64,000 nucleotides of DNA from a virus (Duplodnaviria > Caudoviricetes), in the IMG/VR virus record IMGVR_UViG_3300014204_000188, positions 2,002-66,001 of that record. One strand, 5' to 3'. Under the pieces are notes generated by a model, which saw nothing but the letters and a program-made list of their open reading frames with translations, did not search any database and was not told the origin of the DNA. This document shows positions 534-59,052 of the stretch, in pieces. Positions within the stretch are counted from its first letter, which is position 1. Each line of letters starts with the position of its first letter. Both the position numbers and the translations under genes were made by a program.

Positions 534-914
534 ATGTTTACCATTAGAAAAGAATTTTCGTTTGAAGCCAGTCACCAATTACTTGGTTTACCGGTGGATC
601 ATCCATGTAGTAAATTACATGGACACTCTTATCGCGTTGTTATAGAATTGCATGGTCAATACATAAATAATGTAGGTATGTTGTATGATTATCGCGAATT
701 GGATAAAATTAAATTATACATTGATAAGATGTTAGATCACAAACATCTAAATGATGTAATTATCGGAAATCCTACAGCAGAAATATTGGCAATGCATCTA
801 TATGAGGTGTGTTTACCAATTTTCCCTGATTTGCTAAATGCAATTGAAATTTATGAAACCACAAAAACATCGGCAAGGTATGAACAACTTAATAGTGAAC
901 GATCTATTTTATAG
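534..914 (+). CDS. queD: 6-carboxy-5,6,7,8-tetrahydropterin synthase
   Basis: FEASHQL, CSKLHGHSYRV, LDHKHLND, NPTAE motifs. Confidence 0.93.
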   Translation: MFTIRKEFSFEASHQLLGLPVDHPCSKLHGHSYRVVIELHGQYINNVGMLYDYRELDKIKLYIDKMLDHKHLNDVIIGNPTAEILAMHLYEVCLPIFPDLLNAIEIYETTKTSARYEQLNSERSIL

Positions 915-1500
915 TTTGCAAGGAGAAGGATATCATGCCGGAGAAGCGGCAGTATTTATTCGACTTGCTGGATGTAATCTTCATTGTCCATATTGTGACA
1001 CTGATTATATTTCTGGAATTGAAATGAGTATGCAACAAATAGATTCTATGCTTCCAGCTAAATGTAAATGGATCGTCTGGACTGGAGGAGAACCTGCACA
1101 ACAATTAACAGAAGAACATATTCAATATTTTCAATCCACGAAGTATTATCAGGCTATTGAAACAAATGGCAGTTTACCAGTGCCAGCTGGGCTTGATTAT
1201 GTATCATGCAGTCCAAAGATTGATTTACTTAAAGTAAAAAGAAATCTTTCTAAATATCAATCCATTGGAGAAACAAGATGTTTAATAGGAATAGATGATG
1301 ATGGAATTAGTCATTTCCCGCCAGATATTAATTTATTACCAAAATCTATTCATTACTATGTTTCACCTATGTTTATTGGAGAAGAACATAAGAAATATGA
1401 ATTGGATAAATCTAATCTACAGAAAGCTATTGAATGGGTTAAATTTGATCCTCGATGGAAATTATCCATTCAGCAGCATAAAATTTGGAATATTCCTTGA
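880..1500 (+). CDS. queE: 7-carboxy-7-deazaguanine synthase (radical SAM)
   Basis: FYSLQGEG, FIRLAGCNLHCPYCDT, TGGEP, IETNG, LSIQQHK; likely start is ATG 880, overlapping queD. Confidence 0.93.
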   Translation: MNNLIVNDLFYSLQGEGYHAGEAAVFIRLAGCNLHCPYCDTDYISGIEMSMQQIDSMLPAKCKWIVWTGGEPAQQLTEEHIQYFQSTKYYQAIETNGSLPVPAGLDYVSCSPKIDLLKVKRNLSKYQSIGETRCLIGIDDDGISHFPPDINLLPKSIHYYVSPMFIGEEHKKYELDKSNLQKAIEWVKFDPRWKLSIQQHKIWNIP

Positions 1501-1510
1501 AAGAAATATA

Positions 1511-1539
1511 TTGAAAGAAATATAGTTTCATTGTATAAT
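1511..1539 (+). promoter_or_regulatory. sigma70-like promoter TTGAAA-N17-TATAAT
   Basis: Near-consensus hexamers with 17-nt spacing in the queE/ORF1576 gap. Confidence 0.5.
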
Positions 1540-1575
1540 AAATACTATTAACATAATTTTTAAAATCTTTACGAA

Positions 1576-2346
1576 ATGAAATTAGTACAAATGATTGATG
1601 CCTGTCAAGAATTAATTGATGTGATGGGCTTAGGTCCTGAAGAAGGATCCGAAGAAATCGCTGATGAAAAAGGCTTGTTACTTATTCCAGATGATATTAC
1701 AGCACCTGGAATATTGACTTTGCTCACCAAGTGTTCGAAAGAGATCAATGAAACTGATGTATTCACTGATGCTACTTTATCTGTTTTAGCTGAATTGAAA
1801 CTTTGGCCTGCTGAATTGAATGAACCTGAAGAAATCAACGAAAACGAAGAGTTGATTCAACAAATTCTTTCTACAGAAAAATTGGCAATTCAGCCTCGTA
1901 TGGTTGCATTGAAAAACATCGTAAAAACCAACCCTTTGTTTGCTTCCATGAGAAAAACCATCGCTGGTAAGTTTGCCATTGATGAAATTCAATCACAGAT
2001 GTTGAATTTATTGCATTTCAAACAAGAAGTTGCCGCAGTTGATGCTAAAACAAAAACTATTCCAGCACCACCTGTAAAACCAGCATCTGTAGCATCTGCC
2101 TCACCAAAGAAATCTGGAGTGATACCAGCAAAGCATGAAGGTTCTCTGGCAGAATTCATTGATAAATTGATTCTTAAAGGAGGTAATTTTGATGTTATAG
2201 CAGATGCTGCAACAAAAGAAGCAGAAAAACGGGGTTTAAAAATTCGGTACAATGAGAAAGGAATTCGTTATCATATCAATTATCGATTGAAACGTAATTC
2301 GGGATGGTTAGGTGAATTGAAAATCACAGAAAAAGGCATTGAGTAA
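1576..2346 (+). CDS. hypothetical protein (acidic N-terminus, Pro/Ala linker, basic C-terminus)
   Basis: Long ORF abutting folE; no recognisable family motif. Confidence 0.7.
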
Positions 2347-2882
2347 TGCAAGAATTAATTAAAAGGCAACTTGCCTTTATTGGAGAGGATCCTGGCCGTG
2401 AAGGGTTGATTGAAACTCCAGCCAGGATCCTTAAATCGTGGGATACATTGTATTCTGGATATAAACAAAATCCTGCAGATATTTTTACTGAATTTAAATC
2501 TGAAGGATATGATCAGATGGTACTCCTTCGAAATATTGAAATGTATTCTATGTGTGAGCATCATATGTTGCCATTTTTTGGTAAAGCTCATGTTGCCTAT
2601 CTTCCCGGAGATAGAATAGTTGGAATTTCTAAACTTGCCAGATTGGTTGATATTTACGCTCGGCGTTTACAAATACAAGAACGTTTAGGAGAACAAATAA
2701 CTACAGCATTGATGGAATATTTACACCCAAAAGGAGCTGCTTGTATAATTGAAGCCCAACATATGTGTATGCTTATGCGCGGTGTTCAAAAACAGAATTC
2801 TATTCTGGTCACATCCAGTTTAAAAGGAGAATTTCTTACTGATGCCACTCTACGTGCAGAATTTATGTCTTTTATAAAATGA
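2346..2882 (+). CDS. folE: GTP cyclohydrolase I
   Basis: [48 protein letters not shown]. Confidence 0.96.
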
Positions 2883-3871
2883 AATTATCAGTAATTTATC
2901 TTACGAGACATTGTCCAAGACATTGTAGTTATTGTGCTATTCGAGATACTCTCAAACCACAGGAAGAATTACAAATGCCTGAATGGAAACATGTTTTTCA
3001 AATATTAAAAACTATTAGGATTGATTTTAATCTAATCCTTGGTAATGAACCTTGGTTGCTTGGAGAAAATCTTTTACCTATCTTACATTCTACAGATGTA
3101 CCTTACGCTTTATATACCGCAGGAATTCCTTCGTTGTTTAAGAAATATCATTTATCATTCTTTGGGTATAATCAGATTAAAAACTTTTCAATTGGAATAG
3201 ATTATCCTTTAGGTTTAGATTTAGTGATAAAAGATGATTCCTATACAAAAGCAATGGATGCTTGGGAGGCTTTACAATACGTTCGTAAATTCTATCCATG
3301 GGTAGAAACTCATGCGACAATAACTGTGCATAAACTGAATTATCAGTATCTTCCACAGTTAGTAAGACAACTACAAAATTTGAACATCAACATAAACATT
3401 AATTTCATTCATTGGAATAATGGAGGTGGTTTTGATTTCTTTCCAAGTTTTAAATGTATAAATCGGTTAATGTTTTCAGAAAATGACTATTCAGAACTTC
3501 AGAAAATACTTGATGAAGTTTTACAAAACATAGAATTCATTCAAAATTCACAGATGTTGAAGCTTCCATTTCCAGAATTATTAGGAATGAAATGGCATTG
3601 TCAGGGCAATCCGTATGGTGGTCCAACTGTTGATGCCGATGGTTCTTTACGAGTGTGTGGGTATCGTAAAGGCATTGAGACATCTAAGTTTTCAATTTTT
3701 GATTTACCATCTAAAACAAAAGAATGGGAAGCTGCAGTAAAAGAAGATGCCTCTCATTGTCCAGGGTGTTCTTGGTCCTGTTCATGGATGTATCATTACT
3801 GGGAAAGAAATAATCCTGAACAAGGAAAACAAATCTTTATCAATCATAACAAAGAAAACAAATGTCAATAG
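2879..3871 (+). CDS. radical SAM protein with C-terminal Cys cluster (SPASM/twitch-like)
   Basis: CPRHCSYC (CxxxCxxC), [24 protein letters not shown]. Confidence 0.85.
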
Positions 3872-4410
3872 ATATGAATACTGCGAGTTCAATCTCTCCA
3901 TTGAAATTAAATCTTGGTTGTAGAAATGAGATATTGGAGGATTATATTAATATTGATATTGATAAACTCAATATTTATGATAAAAATGATCAGATAAAAC
4001 CGGTTGTTATACAAATGAATGCGATGGATATTGATCGCTATTTTATTGTTGGCAGTGTCGATAAGATTATTGCTCGTCATTTCTTTGAACATCTGTCTCA
4101 TGAAGAAATCACTATTCTTTTGTATAAGATATGGTCTATACTAAAAACAAATGGAGAATTATATATCGCAGTCCCTGATTTTCAGAGAATTCTGGAGCAT
4201 TACGTGGCAGAACATAAGATGCAGAATTTTGCTAATGTAGACGTTCTCCATTCTCGATTGTTTGGAATTGCCGACGAAAGTCTGCACAAGACTGTTTGGA
4301 CCTCTGAAATAGGTGTTTTCTATCTAACTCGTGAAAATTTCTTTGTTTTAGATAGTATTGAAAAAGTAGAAGATGAGTTGGAATTAAGATTCTATTGTCA
4401 CAAACAATGA
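3862..4410 (+). CDS. class I SAM-dependent methyltransferase
   Basis: LKLNLGC motif I, INIDI, SVDKIIARHFFEHL, LKTNGELYIAVPD. Confidence 0.8.
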   Translation: MSIDMNTASSISPLKLNLGCRNEILEDYINIDIDKLNIYDKNDQIKPVVIQMNAMDIDRYFIVGSVDKIIARHFFEHLSHEEITILLYKIWSILKTNGELYIAVPDFQRILEHYVAEHKMQNFANVDVLHSRLFGIADESLHKTVWTSEIGVFYLTRENFFVLDSIEKVEDELELRFYCHKQ

Positions 4411-4970
4411 AAACAATGAAAGAAAAGAATTTAGTAATTCTATTTAGTGGTGGTGCGGATAGTACATTGCTTCTTAACTTGGCAATAAAATTACATTACT
4501 TACCATTATGTATTTTAGTTGATTATGGACAATCCCATATTGAAGAACTTTCTTTTGCTAAAGAAAGTTGTATAAAACATAATGTATCATTTCAAGTGGT
4601 AACTTTAGGAAATTTAGAAATTGATTCAAAGTTAACAGGCTCTTGTATTACAGAATACAAAGGAGTTTCTGAATGGCATGTGCCATCTCGAAATTTAATG
4701 TTTATTTCTATCGCTGCCAGTATTGCTGAAAGTCATGGAATTAATTTAATTTGGTATGGGGCGAATTATGAAGATCGAGAGCATCAATTTCCAGATTGTT
4801 ATCAGGAATGGGTGTTTTCAATCAATGAATTACTAAAACGTAATGGGAGTATGCCAATTACTGTAGAAGCTCCTTTATTAGGAATGTCAAAAAATCTAAT
4901 TATGCAATTATTAGAACAGTTTAATATTACAAACGATCAAATCTTTAGTGGTTATGGGAAAGATAAATGA
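4395..4970 (+). CDS. queC: QueC-like ATP pyrophosphatase lacking the C-terminal Zn-binding Cys motif
   Basis: VILFSGGADS PP-loop, VDYGQ, VPSRNLMF, FPDC, APLL; ends IFSGYGKDK. Confidence 0.85.
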   Translation: MSQTMKTMKEKNLVILFSGGADSTLLLNLAIKLHYLPLCILVDYGQSHIEELSFAKESCIKHNVSFQVVTLGNLEIDSKLTGSCITEYKGVSEWHVPSRNLMFISIAASIAESHGINLIWYGANYEDREHQFPDCYQEWVFSINELLKRNGSMPITVEAPLLGMSKNLIMQLLEQFNITNDQIFSGYGKDK

Positions 4971-5355
4971 GGTTGTAGAAGGGAAAAAGAAAACTTTTAC
5001 AAAGTTAGTGGATAAGCATCATAGTCCTTTAATTGTCAGAAAGTATACTCATTGGGGATTTCCAATTTACATTGGATTAATCACAGATAATGATTTATCT
5101 GATTTGGATGATTTTATTGTTAAAATTATTTCCGCAAACGTAAAAGAAGGATGGGTAGAAAACATTCAAACTTTACGAAACTTTGCTGGAGATCTTACTG
5201 AACAATTGAATGAACATTATGATCGATCAGAAGGAATTGCAGTCATTTTCTATGTCGATAAAATGTTTGTAAGTTCATTACATGGAGATTTTATGGTGCA
5301 TGCCGCATGTAAACAAGAATTGTTATTCTTATTAAACATGAGTACTGGAGTATAA
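4948..5355 (+). CDS. hypothetical protein within the modification cluster
   Basis: ORF fills the queC/PIG-L gap; no motif recognised. Confidence 0.6.
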   Translation: MVMGKINEVVEGKKKTFTKLVDKHHSPLIVRKYTHWGFPIYIGLITDNDLSDLDDFIVKIISANVKEGWVENIQTLRNFAGDLTEQLNEHYDRSEGIAVIFYVDKMFVSSLHGDFMVHAACKQELLFLLNMSTGV

Positions 5356-5357
5356 TC

Positions 5358-5828
5358 ATGAGTTATATAGTAATAGCACCACATGCCGATGATGAAATAA
5401 TCGGTTGCTATGAATTGTTGACAAAATGGAATAAAGATATTAAAGTTGTTCTTTTTCCTTCTCAACAAGCCATAGATGAATCAGGTTTAAGTAGTCAAAT
5501 AATGAAGTTTGACCGAGGACATACCGATTATCTACCTACAATAATAACAAAATCTGATGTACTTGTTTTCCCTGATCCAATCTATGAATTACATCCTGAA
5601 CATCGTAAATGGGGGCAGATTGGAGAACAGTATGCTCGATCTGGTCATAAAGTTATATTTTATACTACAAATATGCTTGCTCCATACATCCATGAAGTAG
5701 AATTTTCTTTCGTAAAGAAAGAAGTATTAGATAGAGTTTATTTTGAAAAACAACAACTATGGTTGTATGACCATAAATATTTTTTATTTGAAGGTTATAC
5801 TAGTTGGATTTTATCATGGAACGATTGA
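5358..5828 (+). CDS. PIG-L/LmbE family de-N-acetylase
   Basis: VIAPHADDEIIG (HxDD) and later HPEH. Confidence 0.85.
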   Translation: MSYIVIAPHADDEIIGCYELLTKWNKDIKVVLFPSQQAIDESGLSSQIMKFDRGHTDYLPTIITKSDVLVFPDPIYELHPEHRKWGQIGEQYARSGHKVIFYTTNMLAPYIHEVEFSFVKKEVLDRVYFEKQQLWLYDHKYFLFEGYTSWILSWND

Positions 5829-6760
5829 TTTTCATACCACAATATCCTACATCAATGAGATATCAGGAATGGTGGCTACCCATGTTTCAAGAAAAATTTA
5901 AAACTCATTTTAAGTCGATTTTAACGCTTGGAAAATTGCCAAGTAATAATTTAGCCTTAGGACAAGAATTTGCTCCTTTTACGCAGTCAATTCAATTTGA
6001 ACAGAGTCAAATCGATGAATATCTTTCCTTAGAAATAAGAAAGGATGATATTCTTCTTTTAAATGATTTGAGTTATCCGGGATTATTTGCTCAGATGCTT
6101 TTTCATAAACGACCCAATCGATGCTTTGCAATTTGTCATGCCACTTCAAAAAATAGATATGATTATTTTTCTAAAGATAGAAATAGTAAATATTCTATAG
6201 AAAAATCAGTAGGAAAACTGTTTAAAAAAGTTTTCGTAGCATCAAATTATCATGCTCAAAAATTAAATTGGAATAATCTTGTGATTGCTCCGTTTCCATT
6301 TCAACCTTTTCAATCACCTGAAATTATTGTACCTATTGAAAAAAGAATAAGAAACATTGTTTCTATCTCACGTTCAGGAATTCAGAAAAGAAATCATATA
6401 TTAGAAAGTACAGTTGAAAATTTCATAGGTCAGTCTATTGATACTCCAAAAAATAGAAATACTTGGGATTCTTACAATGCGTTTTTACAATCTTCAAAAG
6501 TTGTTTTAATCACATCTAAGGAAGAAACTTATGGATATCAAGTGATTGATGCTGTAAGAAATGGATGCATCCCAATCGCTCCTGCCACATGTAGTTACCC
6601 CGAATTATTATCAAAAGATTATTTATTTACTGATATTCCTGATTTGATTTTAAAAGTGAATAAAGCTCTTACTGGGCAATTGCCTATTCCAAGATTATTA
6701 GTGGAAGAAAGTCAAAAAGAATTTTTTAATATACTATTTCATGAGTTTGATAATGCTTGA
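5816..6760 (+). CDS. GT-B fold (GT4-like) glycosyltransferase
   Basis: SKEETYGYQVIDAVRNGCIPIAP..SYPEL resembles the E-x7-E(D) signature region. Confidence 0.75.
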   Translation: MERLIFIPQYPTSMRYQEWWLPMFQEKFKTHFKSILTLGKLPSNNLALGQEFAPFTQSIQFEQSQIDEYLSLEIRKDDILLLNDLSYPGLFAQMLFHKRPNRCFAICHATSKNRYDYFSKDRNSKYSIEKSVGKLFKKVFVASNYHAQKLNWNNLVIAPFPFQPFQSPEIIVPIEKRIRNIVSISRSGIQKRNHILESTVENFIGQSIDTPKNRNTWDSYNAFLQSSKVVLITSKEETYGYQVIDAVRNGCIPIAPATCSYPELLSKDYLFTDIPDLILKVNKALTGQLPIPRLLVEESQKEFFNILFHEFDNA

Positions 6761-7784
6761 TTCTGGGGCTTACTCAGCATATACTAAAGGCAAAGCAATT
6801 GATATAAATCAATATGCCCAATTTCTTTTACAAAATTCAAAACATTTTGATTATTGTATTAATCTCGATGTAATACTGAATGCTAAAGCCAGTTATACTA
6901 ATTGGCAATATTTACGTAGTTTAGGATTGAATGTTCTTCCAGTATATCATATTGGAACTGATGAAATCTGGTTAAAGAAATATCTAAAGCAAACAGATTA
7001 TATTGCTCTTGGTGCAGTAGCAAATCTAAGTTCTACACAAAGAATGCAGAGTCTTACTCGAATCTGGGATTCTTACTTAACCAATTCTGAGGGATTTCCT
7101 ATAGTAAATGTTCATGGATTAGGATTAACTGCAATTTCATTAATGTTAAGATATCCATGGTTTTCTGTAGATTCTATCACTCCAATTATTGCTTCTGCGT
7201 ATGGACGGATTTTTTTACCTCAGTATACTAGAAAAAACAATCAAGATACATTTTCTTATTTCAATGGATTTTTTTGTAATGTATCTGATCAATCTAAACA
7301 AAAAGTAGGTACTACAACAAGTTTTCTTGGATTACCAAAATTAATTCAAGAAAAATATATTGATTATATTGAAAGAAATGGATATATCTTAGGTAATCTA
7401 TATCATCAGAAAAAAAGAGCAACAAAAAAAGATAAACATGAAAATAGGAAAGAGCATGCTTCGTTATTTACATTAGATCAATCTATGAAAACTGATGCTC
7501 CAGATACTTTGGCTAATTCATGGAAGCAACGTTTATTATACAATGCCTATGTTTGGAATCAATTAATCTTACGAATGCCTAAATATCCAAGAAAACATAA
7601 TTCAATAATTCCTGCAGAAATTCCAAATCATAATAAAAAAATACATGTATACTATGGAGTTAGTACTTCTACACACATAGATTTTATGAAATGGGTAATT
7701 CCACAGCCAGATATTCTAGTTAGTTACGCATATATGACAGATAAATTGCTTAATACCATTGAATCATATAAAAAAATTAAATAA
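6741..7784 (+). CDS. dpdA: DpdA-like deoxyguanine transglycosylase (TGT fold)
   Basis: MLDSGAYS, NLDVI, LPVYH, YIALG, VHGLG, YPWFSVDS; adjacent to preQ0 synthesis genes. Confidence 0.82.
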   Translation: MSLIMLDSGAYSAYTKGKAIDINQYAQFLLQNSKHFDYCINLDVILNAKASYTNWQYLRSLGLNVLPVYHIGTDEIWLKKYLKQTDYIALGAVANLSSTQRMQSLTRIWDSYLTNSEGFPIVNVHGLGLTAISLMLRYPWFSVDSITPIIASAYGRIFLPQYTRKNNQDTFSYFNGFFCNVSDQSKQKVGTTTSFLGLPKLIQEKYIDYIERNGYILGNLYHQKKRATKKDKHENRKEHASLFTLDQSMKTDAPDTLANSWKQRLLYNAYVWNQLILRMPKYPRKHNSIIPAEIPNHNKKIHVYYGVSTSTHIDFMKWVIPQPDILVSYAYMTDKLLNTIESYKKIK

Positions 7785-7785
7785 C

Positions 7786-8799
7786 ATGATTGTAAATAGA
7801 AACATTCTAAAAGAAGCTTTAGAAATAGTAAAGCCTGCACTTGCTAACAAAGAAATGATTGCCCAATCTTCATCATTTGTTTTTATTGATGATAGAATTA
7901 TTACTTACAATGATGAAATAAGCATATCTTATCCATTTCCAGGATTAGAAATTAAAGGTGCTGTTAAAGCAGAAGAATTTTACGAATTGATTAGTAAAAT
8001 TTCTAAAGAAGAATTTGAAATTGTTATTGAAAACAATGAGTTACGAATAACCGCAGGAAGAATCAAAGCTGGATTGGTCTTACAAAAAGAAGTCCAATTA
8101 CCACTTGAAGAATTAGGAGTCTTAGAACATTGGAAAGCATTGCCTGAACAATTTATTGAAGGTTTAAAGTTCGTACTCCCCTCCTGTTCTACAGATATGA
8201 GTCTATCCATATTAATCTGTGTTCATGTAGATGGATCAATAATTGAAGCTACGGATAATCATCGACTTGCTCATTTCGTTTTGCCTGAAAAAGTCCCTGG
8301 TAAATCATTTTTAATTCCAAGTTCTGCCGTGAAAGAATTAGTTAAAATGAATCCATTATACATAACAGATACTCCAGGATGGATTCATTTTAAAACGGAA
8401 GAAAATACTATTATTTCATGTCGTACTTTTCAAGATAAATTTCCTAATACCAGTAATGTATTACATCATGATGGAGTTCATTTAGTTTTTCCAAAGACAT
8501 TAGATGAAAGTTTAGATAAAGCTCTTGTTTTTGCGAAAAAAACTCAAGTTATGGATGAATTTGTTGTGATTACAATTGAAAACAATAGGATTCAAATAAA
8601 GAGCGAATCAGACACTGGTTGGTATAAAGAAGAAGCTAATCTAAAATATTCAGGGGAACTTATACAATTTACAGTTACTCCATTGTTGTTGAAGGATATT
8701 CTTTCAAAATCAACTATCTGTACCATTAGTAGTAGTTGTGTAACTTTTGAAGGTCCGAATTGGATATATGTAGCAATGTTAAGAATAAATAAAGAATGA
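7786..8799 (+). CDS. dnaN: DNA polymerase III beta-type sliding clamp
   Basis: MIVNRNILKEALEIVKPAL N-terminus, EATDNHRLA motif, clamp-sized ORF. Confidence 0.75.
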   Translation: MIVNRNILKEALEIVKPALANKEMIAQSSSFVFIDDRIITYNDEISISYPFPGLEIKGAVKAEEFYELISKISKEEFEIVIENNELRITAGRIKAGLVLQKEVQLPLEELGVLEHWKALPEQFIEGLKFVLPSCSTDMSLSILICVHVDGSIIEATDNHRLAHFVLPEKVPGKSFLIPSSAVKELVKMNPLYITDTPGWIHFKTEENTIISCRTFQDKFPNTSNVLHHDGVHLVFPKTLDESLDKALVFAKKTQVMDEFVVITIENNRIQIKSESDTGWYKEEANLKYSGELIQFTVTPLLLKDILSKSTICTISSSCVTFEGPNWIYVAMLRINKE

Positions 8800-9998
8800 A
8801 TGGATTTTTTGAACTAAAAGATATTCAATCACAGTCACATCCGAATGGGAAAAGATTTTCCTGTGTATCTTGTGGTTTATATCATTCTGCACGTTCCCCA
8901 AAGATGGAACCGAGTGGATTATTCAAGAAAAAAATTCTAAATATTGGCAGCATTCCCAACGAAATTGAAGATCAATTCAATTGTCATTGGGAAGGATCTT
9001 CCAGTGATGGTCTTAAACGAATTTATAGAAAGTTGGGCATTGATATATATGAAGATTGTTTAAATATTAATGCCATTAATTGTTATCCTGGAGACAATAG
9101 AATAGATATTTCAAAACAGATTGCCTGTTGTAGAAATATGGTTTTACAAACAATCAAACAATATAAACCACAAGTAATCATATTATTTGGTATAGAAGCT
9201 ATACAATCAGTAATAGGCAGTCAATGGAAGAAAAAATTAGGAGATTTAAAACAATGGAGAGGGTGGGCTATACCAGATTTGAATTTTAATGCTTGGATTT
9301 GTCCAGTATTTCATCCAAGGCAGATGGAACAAGTAAATAAAGAAATAGGGACTATATGGTATCAAGATTTAGAAAGGGCGATAAGTAAAGTAAATGTTTC
9401 TTTACCTCATTATCAGGAACCACAGATTGAAATAATTGAAGATTTAAGCGTTTTATATACTCTTAAAGGCACTAATGCATTTGATTATGAAACAACTGGA
9501 ATAAGACCATATTCTACGGGACACAGAATTATCTGTGCATCTATTGCTGATACTATTAATCATGCATATGTATTTATGATGCCTCAAACAAAAAAAGAAA
9601 GAAAACCATTTATTGATTTTTTAGAAAATCAAGAAATTGGTAAGATGGCTCATAATATGAAATACGAAGATACTTGGTCCAAGATACGATTACACACTAC
9701 AGTAAAAAATTGGAAATGGGATTCTATGATTGCTGCTCATATTCTTGATAATAGAGAATTGATTACTGGCTTGAAATTTCAAACATATGTTAATCTTGGA
9801 GTTGCAGATTATGACAGCGAAATAGCTCCTTATTTACATAGTACAGAAAAAAATGGAAATGCAATCAATCAAATTATGGAATTAGTTGCACTTCCAGGTG
9901 GTAAAGAAAAACTCATGACATACTGTGCTTTGGATAGTATTTATGAATTTCGTCTGGCTTCACTTCAAATGGAAAAAATAGGAATATTACCATTCTAA
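8796..9998 (+). CDS. uracil-DNA glycosylase family 4-like domain fused to 3'-5' proofreading exonuclease (N-terminal half of a split PolA)
   Basis: CVSCGL, CCR..LQTIKQYKPQVIILFG, PVFHP; then AFDYETTG (ExoI), AHNMKYE (ExoII), YCALDS (ExoIII). Confidence 0.82.
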   Translation: MNGFFELKDIQSQSHPNGKRFSCVSCGLYHSARSPKMEPSGLFKKKILNIGSIPNEIEDQFNCHWEGSSSDGLKRIYRKLGIDIYEDCLNINAINCYPGDNRIDISKQIACCRNMVLQTIKQYKPQVIILFGIEAIQSVIGSQWKKKLGDLKQWRGWAIPDLNFNAWICPVFHPRQMEQVNKEIGTIWYQDLERAISKVNVSLPHYQEPQIEIIEDLSVLYTLKGTNAFDYETTGIRPYSTGHRIICASIADTINHAYVFMMPQTKKERKPFIDFLENQEIGKMAHNMKYEDTWSKIRLHTTVKNWKWDSMIAAHILDNRELITGLKFQTYVNLGVADYDSEIAPYLHSTEKNGNAINQIMELVALPGGKEKLMTYCALDSIYEFRLASLQMEKIGILPF

Positions 9999-10011
9999 AA
10001 GGAAAATATGA

Positions 10012-58962: not shown

Positions 58963-59052
58963 CGAGAGAATAGTTTAAATCGGTAAAATTAAAAACCAAC
59001 AAATTTTTAGATAGAAGTTCAAATCTTCTTTCTCTCACTAATCATTAATCAC

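Follow-up and report, generated by a model that had tools for sequence, protein, structure and literature searches.

A predicted glycosyltransferase, deacetylase and T-fold protein module joined to 7-deazaguanine DNA modification genes in two unrelated groups of phages

The gene array and its encoded proteins

We analyzed a gene array at positions 534-7784 of a 64,000-nucleotide stretch of phage DNA (hereafter the window), which corresponds to bases 2002-66001 of the IMG/VR virus record IMGVR_UViG_3300014204_000188. The record is 66,001 bp long, possesses direct terminal repeats and is rated 100% complete (IMG/VR), and the GC content of the window is approximately 32%. The array lies at the left end of the plus-strand replication module and consists of 11 open reading frames (ORFs), all on the plus strand, which fill the whole interval in the order QueD, QueE, a 256-amino-acid protein, FolE, a radical S-adenosylmethionine (SAM) enzyme, a methyltransferase, QueC, a T-fold protein, an LmbE/PIG-L protein, a GT-B glycosyltransferase (GT) and DpdA (Table 1). 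Adjacent genes overlap or abut, with the sole exception of a 75-nt gap (1501-1575). An earlier reading of this DNA (the original prediction) had described the array as canonical 7-deazaguanine genes interleaved with additional enzymes. The ORF list and hidden Markov model (HMM) matches placed every gene that it named where it had been described, on the plus strand; the list was incomplete in that it had missed the ORF of the 256-amino-acid protein.

Table 1. Predicted genes of the array, with window coordinates and the basis of each assignment
Feature	Position	Strand	Basis
QueD (6-carboxy-tetrahydropterin synthase)	534..914	+	PF01242 E 1e-25; CxxxHGH present as CSKLHGH
QueE (7-carboxy-7-deazaguanine synthase, radical SAM)	838..1500, alternative start 880	+	phrog_2076 E 5.9e-30; TIGR04508 E 7.9e-32
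256-amino-acid protein, no family assignment	1576..2346	+	ORF; conserved position
FolE (GTP cyclohydrolase I)	2346..2882	+	PF01227 E 2.9e-73
Second radical SAM enzyme, SPASM/twitch-like Cys-rich C-terminal part	2879..3871	+	motifs, profile
Class I SAM-dependent methyltransferase	3862..4410	+	PF08241 (Methyltransf_11) E 1.3e-4, above gathering score
Short Zn-less QueC-family PP-loop ATPase	4395..4970, likely start 4407	+	PF06508 E 1.6e-30
T-fold (tunnelling-fold) protein, new virus-only family	4948..5355, likely start 4954	+	AlphaFold2 model, VIA, Foldseek
Minimal LmbE/PIG-L-type metal-dependent de-N-acetylase, 156 amino acids	5358..5828	+	motifs, profile matches
GT-B, GT4-like (BshA/MshA-like) glycosyltransferase	5804..6760, likely start 5816	+	PF00534 family matches, AlphaFold2 and Foldseek
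DpdA-type DNA guanine transglycosylase	6741..7784	+	phrog_887 E 4.6e-44

By homology, FolE, QueD and QueE would convert GTP to 7-carboxy-7-deazaguanine (CDG), and DpdA would exchange guanine in DNA for the 7-deazaguanine base. The array contains the CDG synthesis set together with DpdA, the hallmarks of a phage DpdA-type 7-deazaguanine DNA modification system. When DpdA was used as a tblastn query, 205 phage records were matched, the best at approximately 32% identity and annotated as DpdA or tRNA-guanine transglycosylase (TGT) of Pseudomonas, Vibrio and Rhizobium siphophages. Further, its motifs LDSGAY and SVDS were invariant in 18 homologues. Single-sequence PDB searches with DpdA, the LmbE-type protein and the second radical SAM enzyme gave nothing useful.

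As had been claimed, QueF, ArcS and a glutamine amidotransferase (GATase) domain were absent from the array in Pfam, PHROG and NCBIfam HMM scans, and a formyltransferase domain was likewise not found. The sole match of the QueF HMM in the whole genome was its known cross-match inside FolE. DpdL, a putative CDG decarboxylase, was ruled out: the only gene of the 6-pyruvoyl-tetrahydropterin synthase (PTPS) family carries the QueD motif CSKLHGH, not LxxxHRHxF (PMC10516641), and the T-fold ORF, unlike DpdL, has no HxH motif. The known accessory enzymes of such systems are QueF, Gat-QueC, ArcS, DpdL, DpdM and DpdN (Cui 2023, PMC10516641). Judged by sequence, the extra genes of the window match none of these.

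The GT showed a Pfam match with an E-value of 2e-3 as a single sequence, under the Pfam cut-off, and PF00534 was matched by 25 of the 27 members of its family. Its AlphaFold2 model (predicted local distance difference test score (pLDDT) 91) has the two-Rossmann GT-B fold. The best PDB matches of this model in Foldseek were BshA structures from three species (6n1x, 6d9t, 3mbo and 5d01; E 4e-9 to 3e-8), followed by GlgM and MshA and, further down, by a pterin glucosyltransferase and T4 alpha-glucosyltransferase (1y6f). There were 327 PDB matches at E <= 1e-3, and nearly all of the matches listed were GT-B enzymes. Residues E240, E241 and D249 (TSKEET..D) are invariant and form E-x7-D at the position where GT4 enzymes have EX7E. 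The family comprises more than 288 metagenome protein clusters (90% identity) of approximately 310 amino acids. By family membership and modeled fold, the assignment of the protein as a GT is firm. BshA and MshA are uridine diphosphate N-acetylglucosamine (UDP-GlcNAc) transferases, and the LmbE enzymes BshB and MshB, respectively, remove the acetyl group from their products. The tRNA queuosine mannosyltransferase QTMAN/GTDC1, considered for this GT on account of a possible resemblance in the C-terminal motif, was dropped: QTMAN_N (PF12038) had no match genome-wide at E 10.

The gene upstream of the GT encodes the LmbE/PIG-L protein, for which the single-sequence PIG-L match (E 1.3e-4) was under the Pfam cut-off. 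The residues H9-x-D11-D12 and H79-P-x-H82 are invariant in 30 homologues. When the profile of these 30 sequences was compared with the PDB, deacetylases were matched (3we7, 8bgn and 3wl4; E 2e-4 to 7e-4), and the match to the archaeal diacetylchitobiose deacetylases (3we7 and 8bgn; E 2e-4) covers both motifs. LmbE-like enzymes are defined by HxDD together with H, the motif for the metal and the general base, and the extra histidine of the phage protein is equivalent to His110 of BshB and His144 of MshB (PMC4101496). With the profile and the motifs taken into account, the PIG-L assignment is firm and the protein is a predicted deacetylase.

QueC aligned to residues 1-172 of the QueC structures 3bl5 and 2pg3. 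All CDG and ATP motifs are kept, namely SGGxDS (FSGGADS), YGQxHxxE (YGQSHIEE), VPSRN and FPDC. The protein stops four residues past SGY, the position at which canonical QueC has SCY followed by the zinc motif C(x)8CxxCxxC, and the same Zn-less ending was found in approximately 24 relatives from both of the phage groups described below (classes A and B). The original prediction had counted this gene as canonical; the gene and its CDG/ATP motifs were confirmed, but the zinc motif is missing and the canonical status did not hold. Because QueC has no Zn motif, 7-cyano-7-deazaguanine (preQ0) may not be made here; in a 2026 study, residue Y189 in the Zn region of QueC proved essential for preQ0 formation (PMC13329287). 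At the YPDC position, which reads FPDC here, a Y-to-F change leaves partial activity (PMC13329287). In Cap9, a minimal form of QueC, CDG is ligated to the amine of a protein (PMC13329287, PMC13279940). By sequence, the short phage QueC is a conserved clade distinct from Cap9, since Cap9 keeps the Zn motif and the phage protein has none.

The ORF between QueC and LmbE, which had been listed as unknown, encodes a 135-amino-acid protein. Its AlphaFold2 model, built from 28 homologues (pLDDT 85), has the secondary structure E-E-H-H-E-E, and in VIA comparisons the model matched GTP cyclohydrolase I (GCH-I) with Z 11.5 (4uqf) and 10.1 (4du6), archaeosine synthase QueF-L with 9.2 (5jyx), QueF with 8.7 (4f8b), and dihydroneopterin aldolases, FolX and PTPS/QueD with 7-9. 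GCH-I was also on top in Foldseek. On the modeled structure, the ORF is thus a predicted T-fold protein with a GCH-I/QueF-like fold, and the claim that no QueF is present held by sequence only. T-fold enzymes bind purines or pterins. Those of the 7-deazaguanine pathway are FolE, QueD, QueF and, as proposed, DpdL (PMC10516641).

The T-fold protein is the most conserved accessory protein, with 60-70% identity within class A. Residues K23, R31, D47, D54, Q74, R77, E95, D104, K105, D114 and E124 are its invariant polar residues, and H118 and C121 are near-invariant. There was no match in tblastn against cultured phages even at E 1, an Atlas search returned unnamed clusters only, and among 185,579 species genomes of cells the family was found on five contigs, all derived from metagenome-assembled genomes (MAGs).

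The fold of this protein bears on one alternative, namely that it is a cryptic analogue of QueF or QueF-L, so that preQ0 would be converted to an amine or amidine resembling 7-aminomethyl-7-deazaguanine (preQ1) and then glycosylated or methylated, comparable to the methylated deoxy-preQ1 (mdPreQ1) produced by DpdM. The Z scores for QueF-L and QueF, the near-invariant Cys121 and His118, and the position of the gene directly after QueC are consistent with such an activity, and the known phage bases mdPreQ1 and fdPreQ1 (formylated deoxy-preQ1) derive from preQ1 (PMC10516641). However, GCH-I outscores QueF, and the QueF HMM does not match the T-fold ORF. Further, Cys121, the only conserved cysteine, is missing in two homologues and is located on the C-terminal helix, and the nitrile substrate may not exist, as QueC has no counterpart of the region needed for preQ0 (PMC13329287). 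We consider this alternative improbable.

Conservation in two unrelated groups of phages

When 50,697 phage records were searched for DNA nearly identical to the cluster, there were zero matches. At the protein level, all ORFs are retained in unchanged order on two related IMG/VR contigs, with 46-97% amino acid identity, and the order recurs on long ENA and Logan contigs. On 75-kb ENA contigs, for example, it reads helicase, QueD, QueE, an unknown protein, FolE, a short-chain dehydrogenase/reductase (SDR), radical SAM enzyme, methyltransferase and short QueC, followed by the 125- and 156-amino-acid proteins, GT, DpdA, Nudix, clamp, UDG/exo (a uracil-DNA glycosylase (UDG)-like protein with a 3'-5' exonuclease domain) and PolA. 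To survey the system, 56 IMG/VR loci were found with the GT profile and scored with the window proteins, and GTs with at least 90% identity were merged, which gave 42 lineages.

Class A comprises 23 lineages of phages of approximately 60-75 kb with PolA, in which a DpdA of the window type directly follows the GT. LmbE and the T-fold protein were each present in 22 of these 23 lineages, and QueC and the second radical SAM enzyme in 21 each; the few absences fall in incomplete loci. Three genes were more variable, namely SDR (12/23), methyltransferase (11/23, of two unrelated types) and Nudix (7/23). The arrangement of the array is not due to chance: 23 distinct viral lineages share the gene order, with ORFs that are intact and 40-90% identical in amino acid sequence.

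Class B comprises 12 lineages, mostly jumbo phages (90-312 kb), which have a family B polymerase and none of the replication genes of the window. GT and LmbE were found together in all 12, as in 22 of the 23 class A lineages. A QueE gene (phrog_2076 E 1.7e-29; best NCBIfam matches QueE) lies 6-7 kb downstream, and a gene for a conserved protein of 457-474 amino acids with a TGT-type DSGGFQ motif lies 5.5-10.5 kb downstream. The latter protein showed weak phrog_887 matches in three genomes and is probably a divergent DpdA-like enzyme; blastp of this protein against the putative DpdA3 of Acidovorax phage ACP17 was not significant. When five class B genomes were searched whole, the T-fold protein was found in 5/5 (E about 1e-55), QueC in 4/5 (three of them short), QueD in 3/5 and FolE in 0/5. 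The T-fold gene lies 1.6-11 kb from QueC, and a clear QueC is missing from G004, a complete jumbo genome. Of all lineages surveyed, L047 and L050 encode a canonical Zn-containing QueC alongside the same T-fold/LmbE/GT set. Two class B loci also encode a Zn-ribbon protein with a segment resembling nucleoside deoxyribosyltransferase/YAcAr a short distance upstream of the T-fold or GT genes (L034, 7360-8166; L007, 8433-8855). In the vicinity of the latter are a dGTP diphosphohydrolase-like gene, a deoxyribosyltransferase gene and a TylF-type methyltransferase gene.

Thus, GT, LmbE and the T-fold protein (with QueC in most cases) form a module that two unrelated phage backbones combine with genes for QueE and a DpdA-type protein. 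The proposed link between the accessory set and the deazaguanine genes was borne out, in that the GT/LmbE pair was inseparable from deazaguanine/DpdA-type genes in both groups. That the module acts on a deazaguanine is argued mainly from its recurrence in unrelated backbones.

A related GT was found in a cultured phage. When the GT was compared with cultured phages using tblastn, the matches were marginal only. The best viral structural match, far above the others, was a GT from Acidovorax phage ACP17 (E 8.8e-17; template modeling (TM) score 0.77), which shares 20.6% identity with the window GT over 287 amino acids (blastp) and scored 51.7 bits with the family HMM. This unannotated GT-B gene (record KY979132, 84803-85831; L068 8804-9832) is located between the gene of a 424-amino-acid phrog_10773 protein, the putative DpdA3, and that of a 127-amino-acid DpdL-like protein (motif SPHRHLF). 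QueD and FolE genes lie upstream of these genes and a QueE gene lies downstream. The dpdL and dpdA genes of ACP17 were used in a previous study, in which the GT was not discussed and the DNA chemistry of ACP17 itself was not reported (PMC10516641). The DNA of ACP17 may carry a modification beyond 2'-deoxy-7-deazaguanosine (dDG).

These linkages bear on a second alternative, in which the phage DNA carries only a known simple base, most likely the deoxynucleoside form of 7-amido-7-deazaguanine (dADG) or of CDG (dCDG), or else that of preQ0 (dPreQ0), and GT, LmbE and the T-fold protein serve another target, which may be a different DNA base, a protein of the virion or the host, or an envelope glycan of the host. 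The core formed by FolE, QueD, QueE, QueC together with DpdA suffices for known modifications (PMC6884629, PMC10516641), and GT4 enzymes have very diverse acceptors. However, in class A the module is without exception flanked by QueC and DpdA and stop codons overlap start codons, the module stands again with QueE, QueC and a DpdA-like gene in the unrelated jumbo phages, and a related GT is present in the ACP17 cluster. Further, the T-fold protein suggests a purine or pterin ligand, and no hydroxymethyl-pyrimidine synthase was among the HMM matches of the cluster. We regard the simple base as unlikely to be the whole product.

Proposed chemistry and comparison with known systems

On balance, we lean toward the reading that a sugar-bearing deazaguanine, most readily a hexosamine derivative, replaces guanine in the phage DNA. 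A sugar-bearing product beyond dPreQ0, deoxyarchaeosine (dG+) and dADG, as the original prediction had suggested, is supported as far as sequence goes by the fold of the GT, the metal motif of the PIG-L protein and the linkage of the genes. The GT-B enzyme would transfer an N-acetyl-hexosamine from a host UDP-sugar, and the LmbE-type enzyme would take off the acetyl group and free an amine. Zn-less QueC would bind CDG and ATP, adenylate the carboxylate of CDG and form an amide. In the favored sub-model, the sugar amine would be the nucleophile, mirroring MshA-MshB-MshC and BshA-BshB-BshC and the CDG-protein amide of Cap9; the Zn region of QueC would then be lost because an N-substituted amide cannot become a nitrile. 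In the second sub-model, ammonia would give 7-amido-7-deazaguanine (ADG), which would be glycosylated as the base or in DNA, and subsequent deacetylation would expose a cationic amine. At one of these steps the T-fold protein would bind the deazapurine moiety, and tailoring of the sugar or the base would fall to the methyltransferase and the SPASM-type radical SAM enzyme, in the relatives also to SDR and Nudix. The sugar could be added either before or after DpdA inserts the base, and the modified base would shield the phage DNA from host nucleases. By analogy with these ligases, we tentatively suggest as a possibility that Zn-less QueC is a CDG:amino-sugar ligase and that the DNA contains a 7-deazaguanine-7-carboxamide with the C2 amine of a hexosamine as the amide nitrogen.

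Several points weigh against a hexosamine-bearing base. The sugar, the linkage and the acceptor atom are guesses, and the system is known here from genes alone. The acceptor of the GT is only presumed, and the amide-linked model still needs an aglycone. The assignment of LmbE is based on motifs and a modest profile E-value of 2e-4, and its metal-ligand spacer of 66-69 residues is below that of every characterized member (97-148; PMC4101496). Zn-less QueC is not obligatory for the module, because L047 and L050 have the Zn-containing form and G004 has no clear QueC. In class B, hhalign of the 460-amino-acid family against class A DpdA gave E 0.0044 at only 8% probability, and PF01702 (TGT) had no match in five genomes. 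Finally, the DpdA pocket would have to take a bulky base, or three to five enzymes would have to act on duplex DNA.

Among known systems, those with DpdA1 in Escherichia phage CAjan and the Pseudomonas Queuovirinae share the same five-gene core, a phrog_887 DpdA and the location in the replication module (PMC6884629, PMC10484667). In contrast to these systems, QueC of the window is Zn-less, and six extra genes (T-fold, LmbE, GT, radical SAM/SPASM, methyltransferase and the 256-amino-acid protein) are interleaved. The DpdL/DpdA3 clusters of ACP17 and Cellulophaga phage phiST are associated with dDG (PMC10516641), and that of ACP17 shares the distant GT homologue. Unlike the window, however, ACP17 has no QueC and, by blastp, no T-fold or LmbE homologue; its DpdA belongs to another subfamily, and it encodes a QueD-paralogue putative decarboxylase.

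A GT4-type GlcNAc transferase followed by an LmbE de-N-acetylase is also the order of steps in the syntheses of bacillithiol (BshA-BshB-BshC) and mycothiol (MshA-MshB-MshC), and in the deacetylation of 2'-N-acetylparomamine by BtrD. In the thiol pathways an ATP-dependent ligase acylates the freed sugar amine; the candidate ligase in the window would be the QueC-family PP-loop protein, with CDG as the acyl group. The phage LmbE is far smaller (156 amino acids) than the enzymes of these pathways, and the destination of the phage product is presumed to be DNA. This likeness bears on a third alternative, that the accessory genes make a free deazapurine-amino-sugar metabolite, such as one that inhibits a host enzyme or defense system, and that DpdA independently inserts a simple base. 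Glycosides of preQ0 are natural products of actinomycetes (huimycin/dapiramicin type). GT, LmbE and an ATP-dependent ligase together follow the logic of small-molecule thiol biosynthesis (PMC4101496). However, the genes are located in the replication module of strictly viral genomes, near the clamp, polymerase and helicase genes, the T-fold family is almost absent from cells (five MAG contigs in 185,579 species), and in class A the GT gene is always immediately followed by that of DpdA. We consider a free metabolite improbable.

The QueC scaffolds Cap9, of type IV cyclic-oligonucleotide-based antiphage signaling systems (CBASS), and QatC adenylate CDG, which they then transfer to an amine that is not ammonia (PMC13279940, PMC13329287). 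Like the phage QueC, Cap9 is short (approximately 185 amino acids) and has canonical CDG and ATP motifs. In contrast to the phage protein, Cap9 and QatC keep the Zn motif, use a protein N-terminus as the acceptor and are host defense proteins. On the side of the GT, T4 alpha-glucosyltransferase and the GTs for arabinosyl-5-hydroxycytosine (5hoC) of phages DLP3 and RB69 are likewise BshA/MshA-like GT-B enzymes that decorate bases of phage DNA (PMC13326640). The substrates of such DNA GTs are hydroxymethyl- or hydroxy-pyrimidines, which come from thymidylate synthase homologues, whereas the GT of the window is partnered with a pathway for the purine 7-deazaguanine and is invariably accompanied by a deacetylase.

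What is new is the accessory module added to a known 7-deazaguanine system; full-text literature on 7-deazaguanine/DpdA and phage DNA modification, including that of 2024-2026, contained no description of it that we could find. The eight 7-deazaguanines known in DNA carry small groups only (PMC10516641). The sugar modifications of DNA that we found in the literature are all on pyrimidines, as glucosyl- or arabinosyl-5-hydroxymethylcytosine (5hmC) or 5hoC and glycosylated thymidine derivatives. Base J is likewise a glycosylated DNA pyrimidine. If the reading of a sugar-bearing deazaguanine is correct, this base would be the first purine in DNA to be glycosylated. A hexosamine deazaguanine would constitute a chemically novel class of DNA base that takes up much room in the major groove and may be positively charged there, and its confirmation would establish a new class of DNA modification. 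Such a base would have consequences for restriction, CRISPR and DNA-glycosylase defenses and could cause a sequencing bias against these phages in metagenomes. Enzyme tools could also come from it: a DNA glycosyltransferase directed at purines, a QueC ligase that lacks Zn, and a novel T-fold enzyme. The module is widespread, with hundreds of uncultured phages from two or more unrelated lineages carrying it, and ACP17, as a cultured phage, provides a partial experimental handle.

Variable genes and genomic surroundings

The second radical SAM enzyme has CxxxCxxC at residues 12-19, in which C12, C16 and C19 are invariant, and invariant C-terminal cysteines at C241, C260, C294 and C297. Its profile matched SkfB in the PDB (E 4.5e-6), and its Atlas neighbors were radical SAM/SPASM clusters, mostly viral, with PF13186 in 12-100% of members. 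The family comprises at least 248 metagenome clusters at 90% identity. DpdM, the dPreQ1 methyltransferase, was compared by motif and rejected as an identity for this enzyme, which has CPRHCSYCA without the fourth cysteine of CxxxCxxCC and no PHROG match.

The methyltransferase has the motif I LNLGC(R/G)N and a conserved FEHL motif, and is plausibly an active class I enzyme. Other lineages encode an unrelated methyltransferase at the same place, or none. A methylated product had been proposed, and the methyltransferase on which this was based is present; it proved to be lineage-variable, occurring in about half of the lineages as two unrelated types. We infer that the radical SAM enzyme, SDR, methyltransferase and Nudix are lineage-variable tailoring genes.

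In the 256-amino-acid protein, the N-terminal half is very acidic, whereas the C-terminal 70 residues are basic and conserved. The protein showed no Pfam, NCBIfam or firm PHROG match, and is kept at the position between queE and folE in 14 of the 23 class A lineages. Two close relatives possess an extra gene that is missing in the window: between folE and the second radical SAM gene, L003 (7684-8004) and, at the same place, L002 encode a 106-amino-acid protein. The N-terminus of the L003 protein (MRMWNIDP...HLLGEHLE) may resemble the endonuclease V/pyrimidine-dimer glycosylase family.

In a scan for promoters and terminators, the counts were indistinguishable from those of shuffled sequences. 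The array is preceded by a helicase-like ORF and followed by genes for a sliding clamp, a protein of the UDG-like/3'-5' exonuclease type, a polymerase of family A and an AAA+ protein resembling clamp loaders. The replicative polymerase is thus split (window 8796-11412), the first ORF encoding the UDG-like domain and the 3'-5' exonuclease and the second the palm and fingers of PolA, and this arrangement is kept in all class A loci. A study of UDG-fused PolA dealt with large SP15-like polymerases, and the present phage group lies outside its coverage (PMC13697223). At 58964-59038 of the window, ARAGORN detected one tRNA, of undetermined identity, with a four-base anticodon (aaca).

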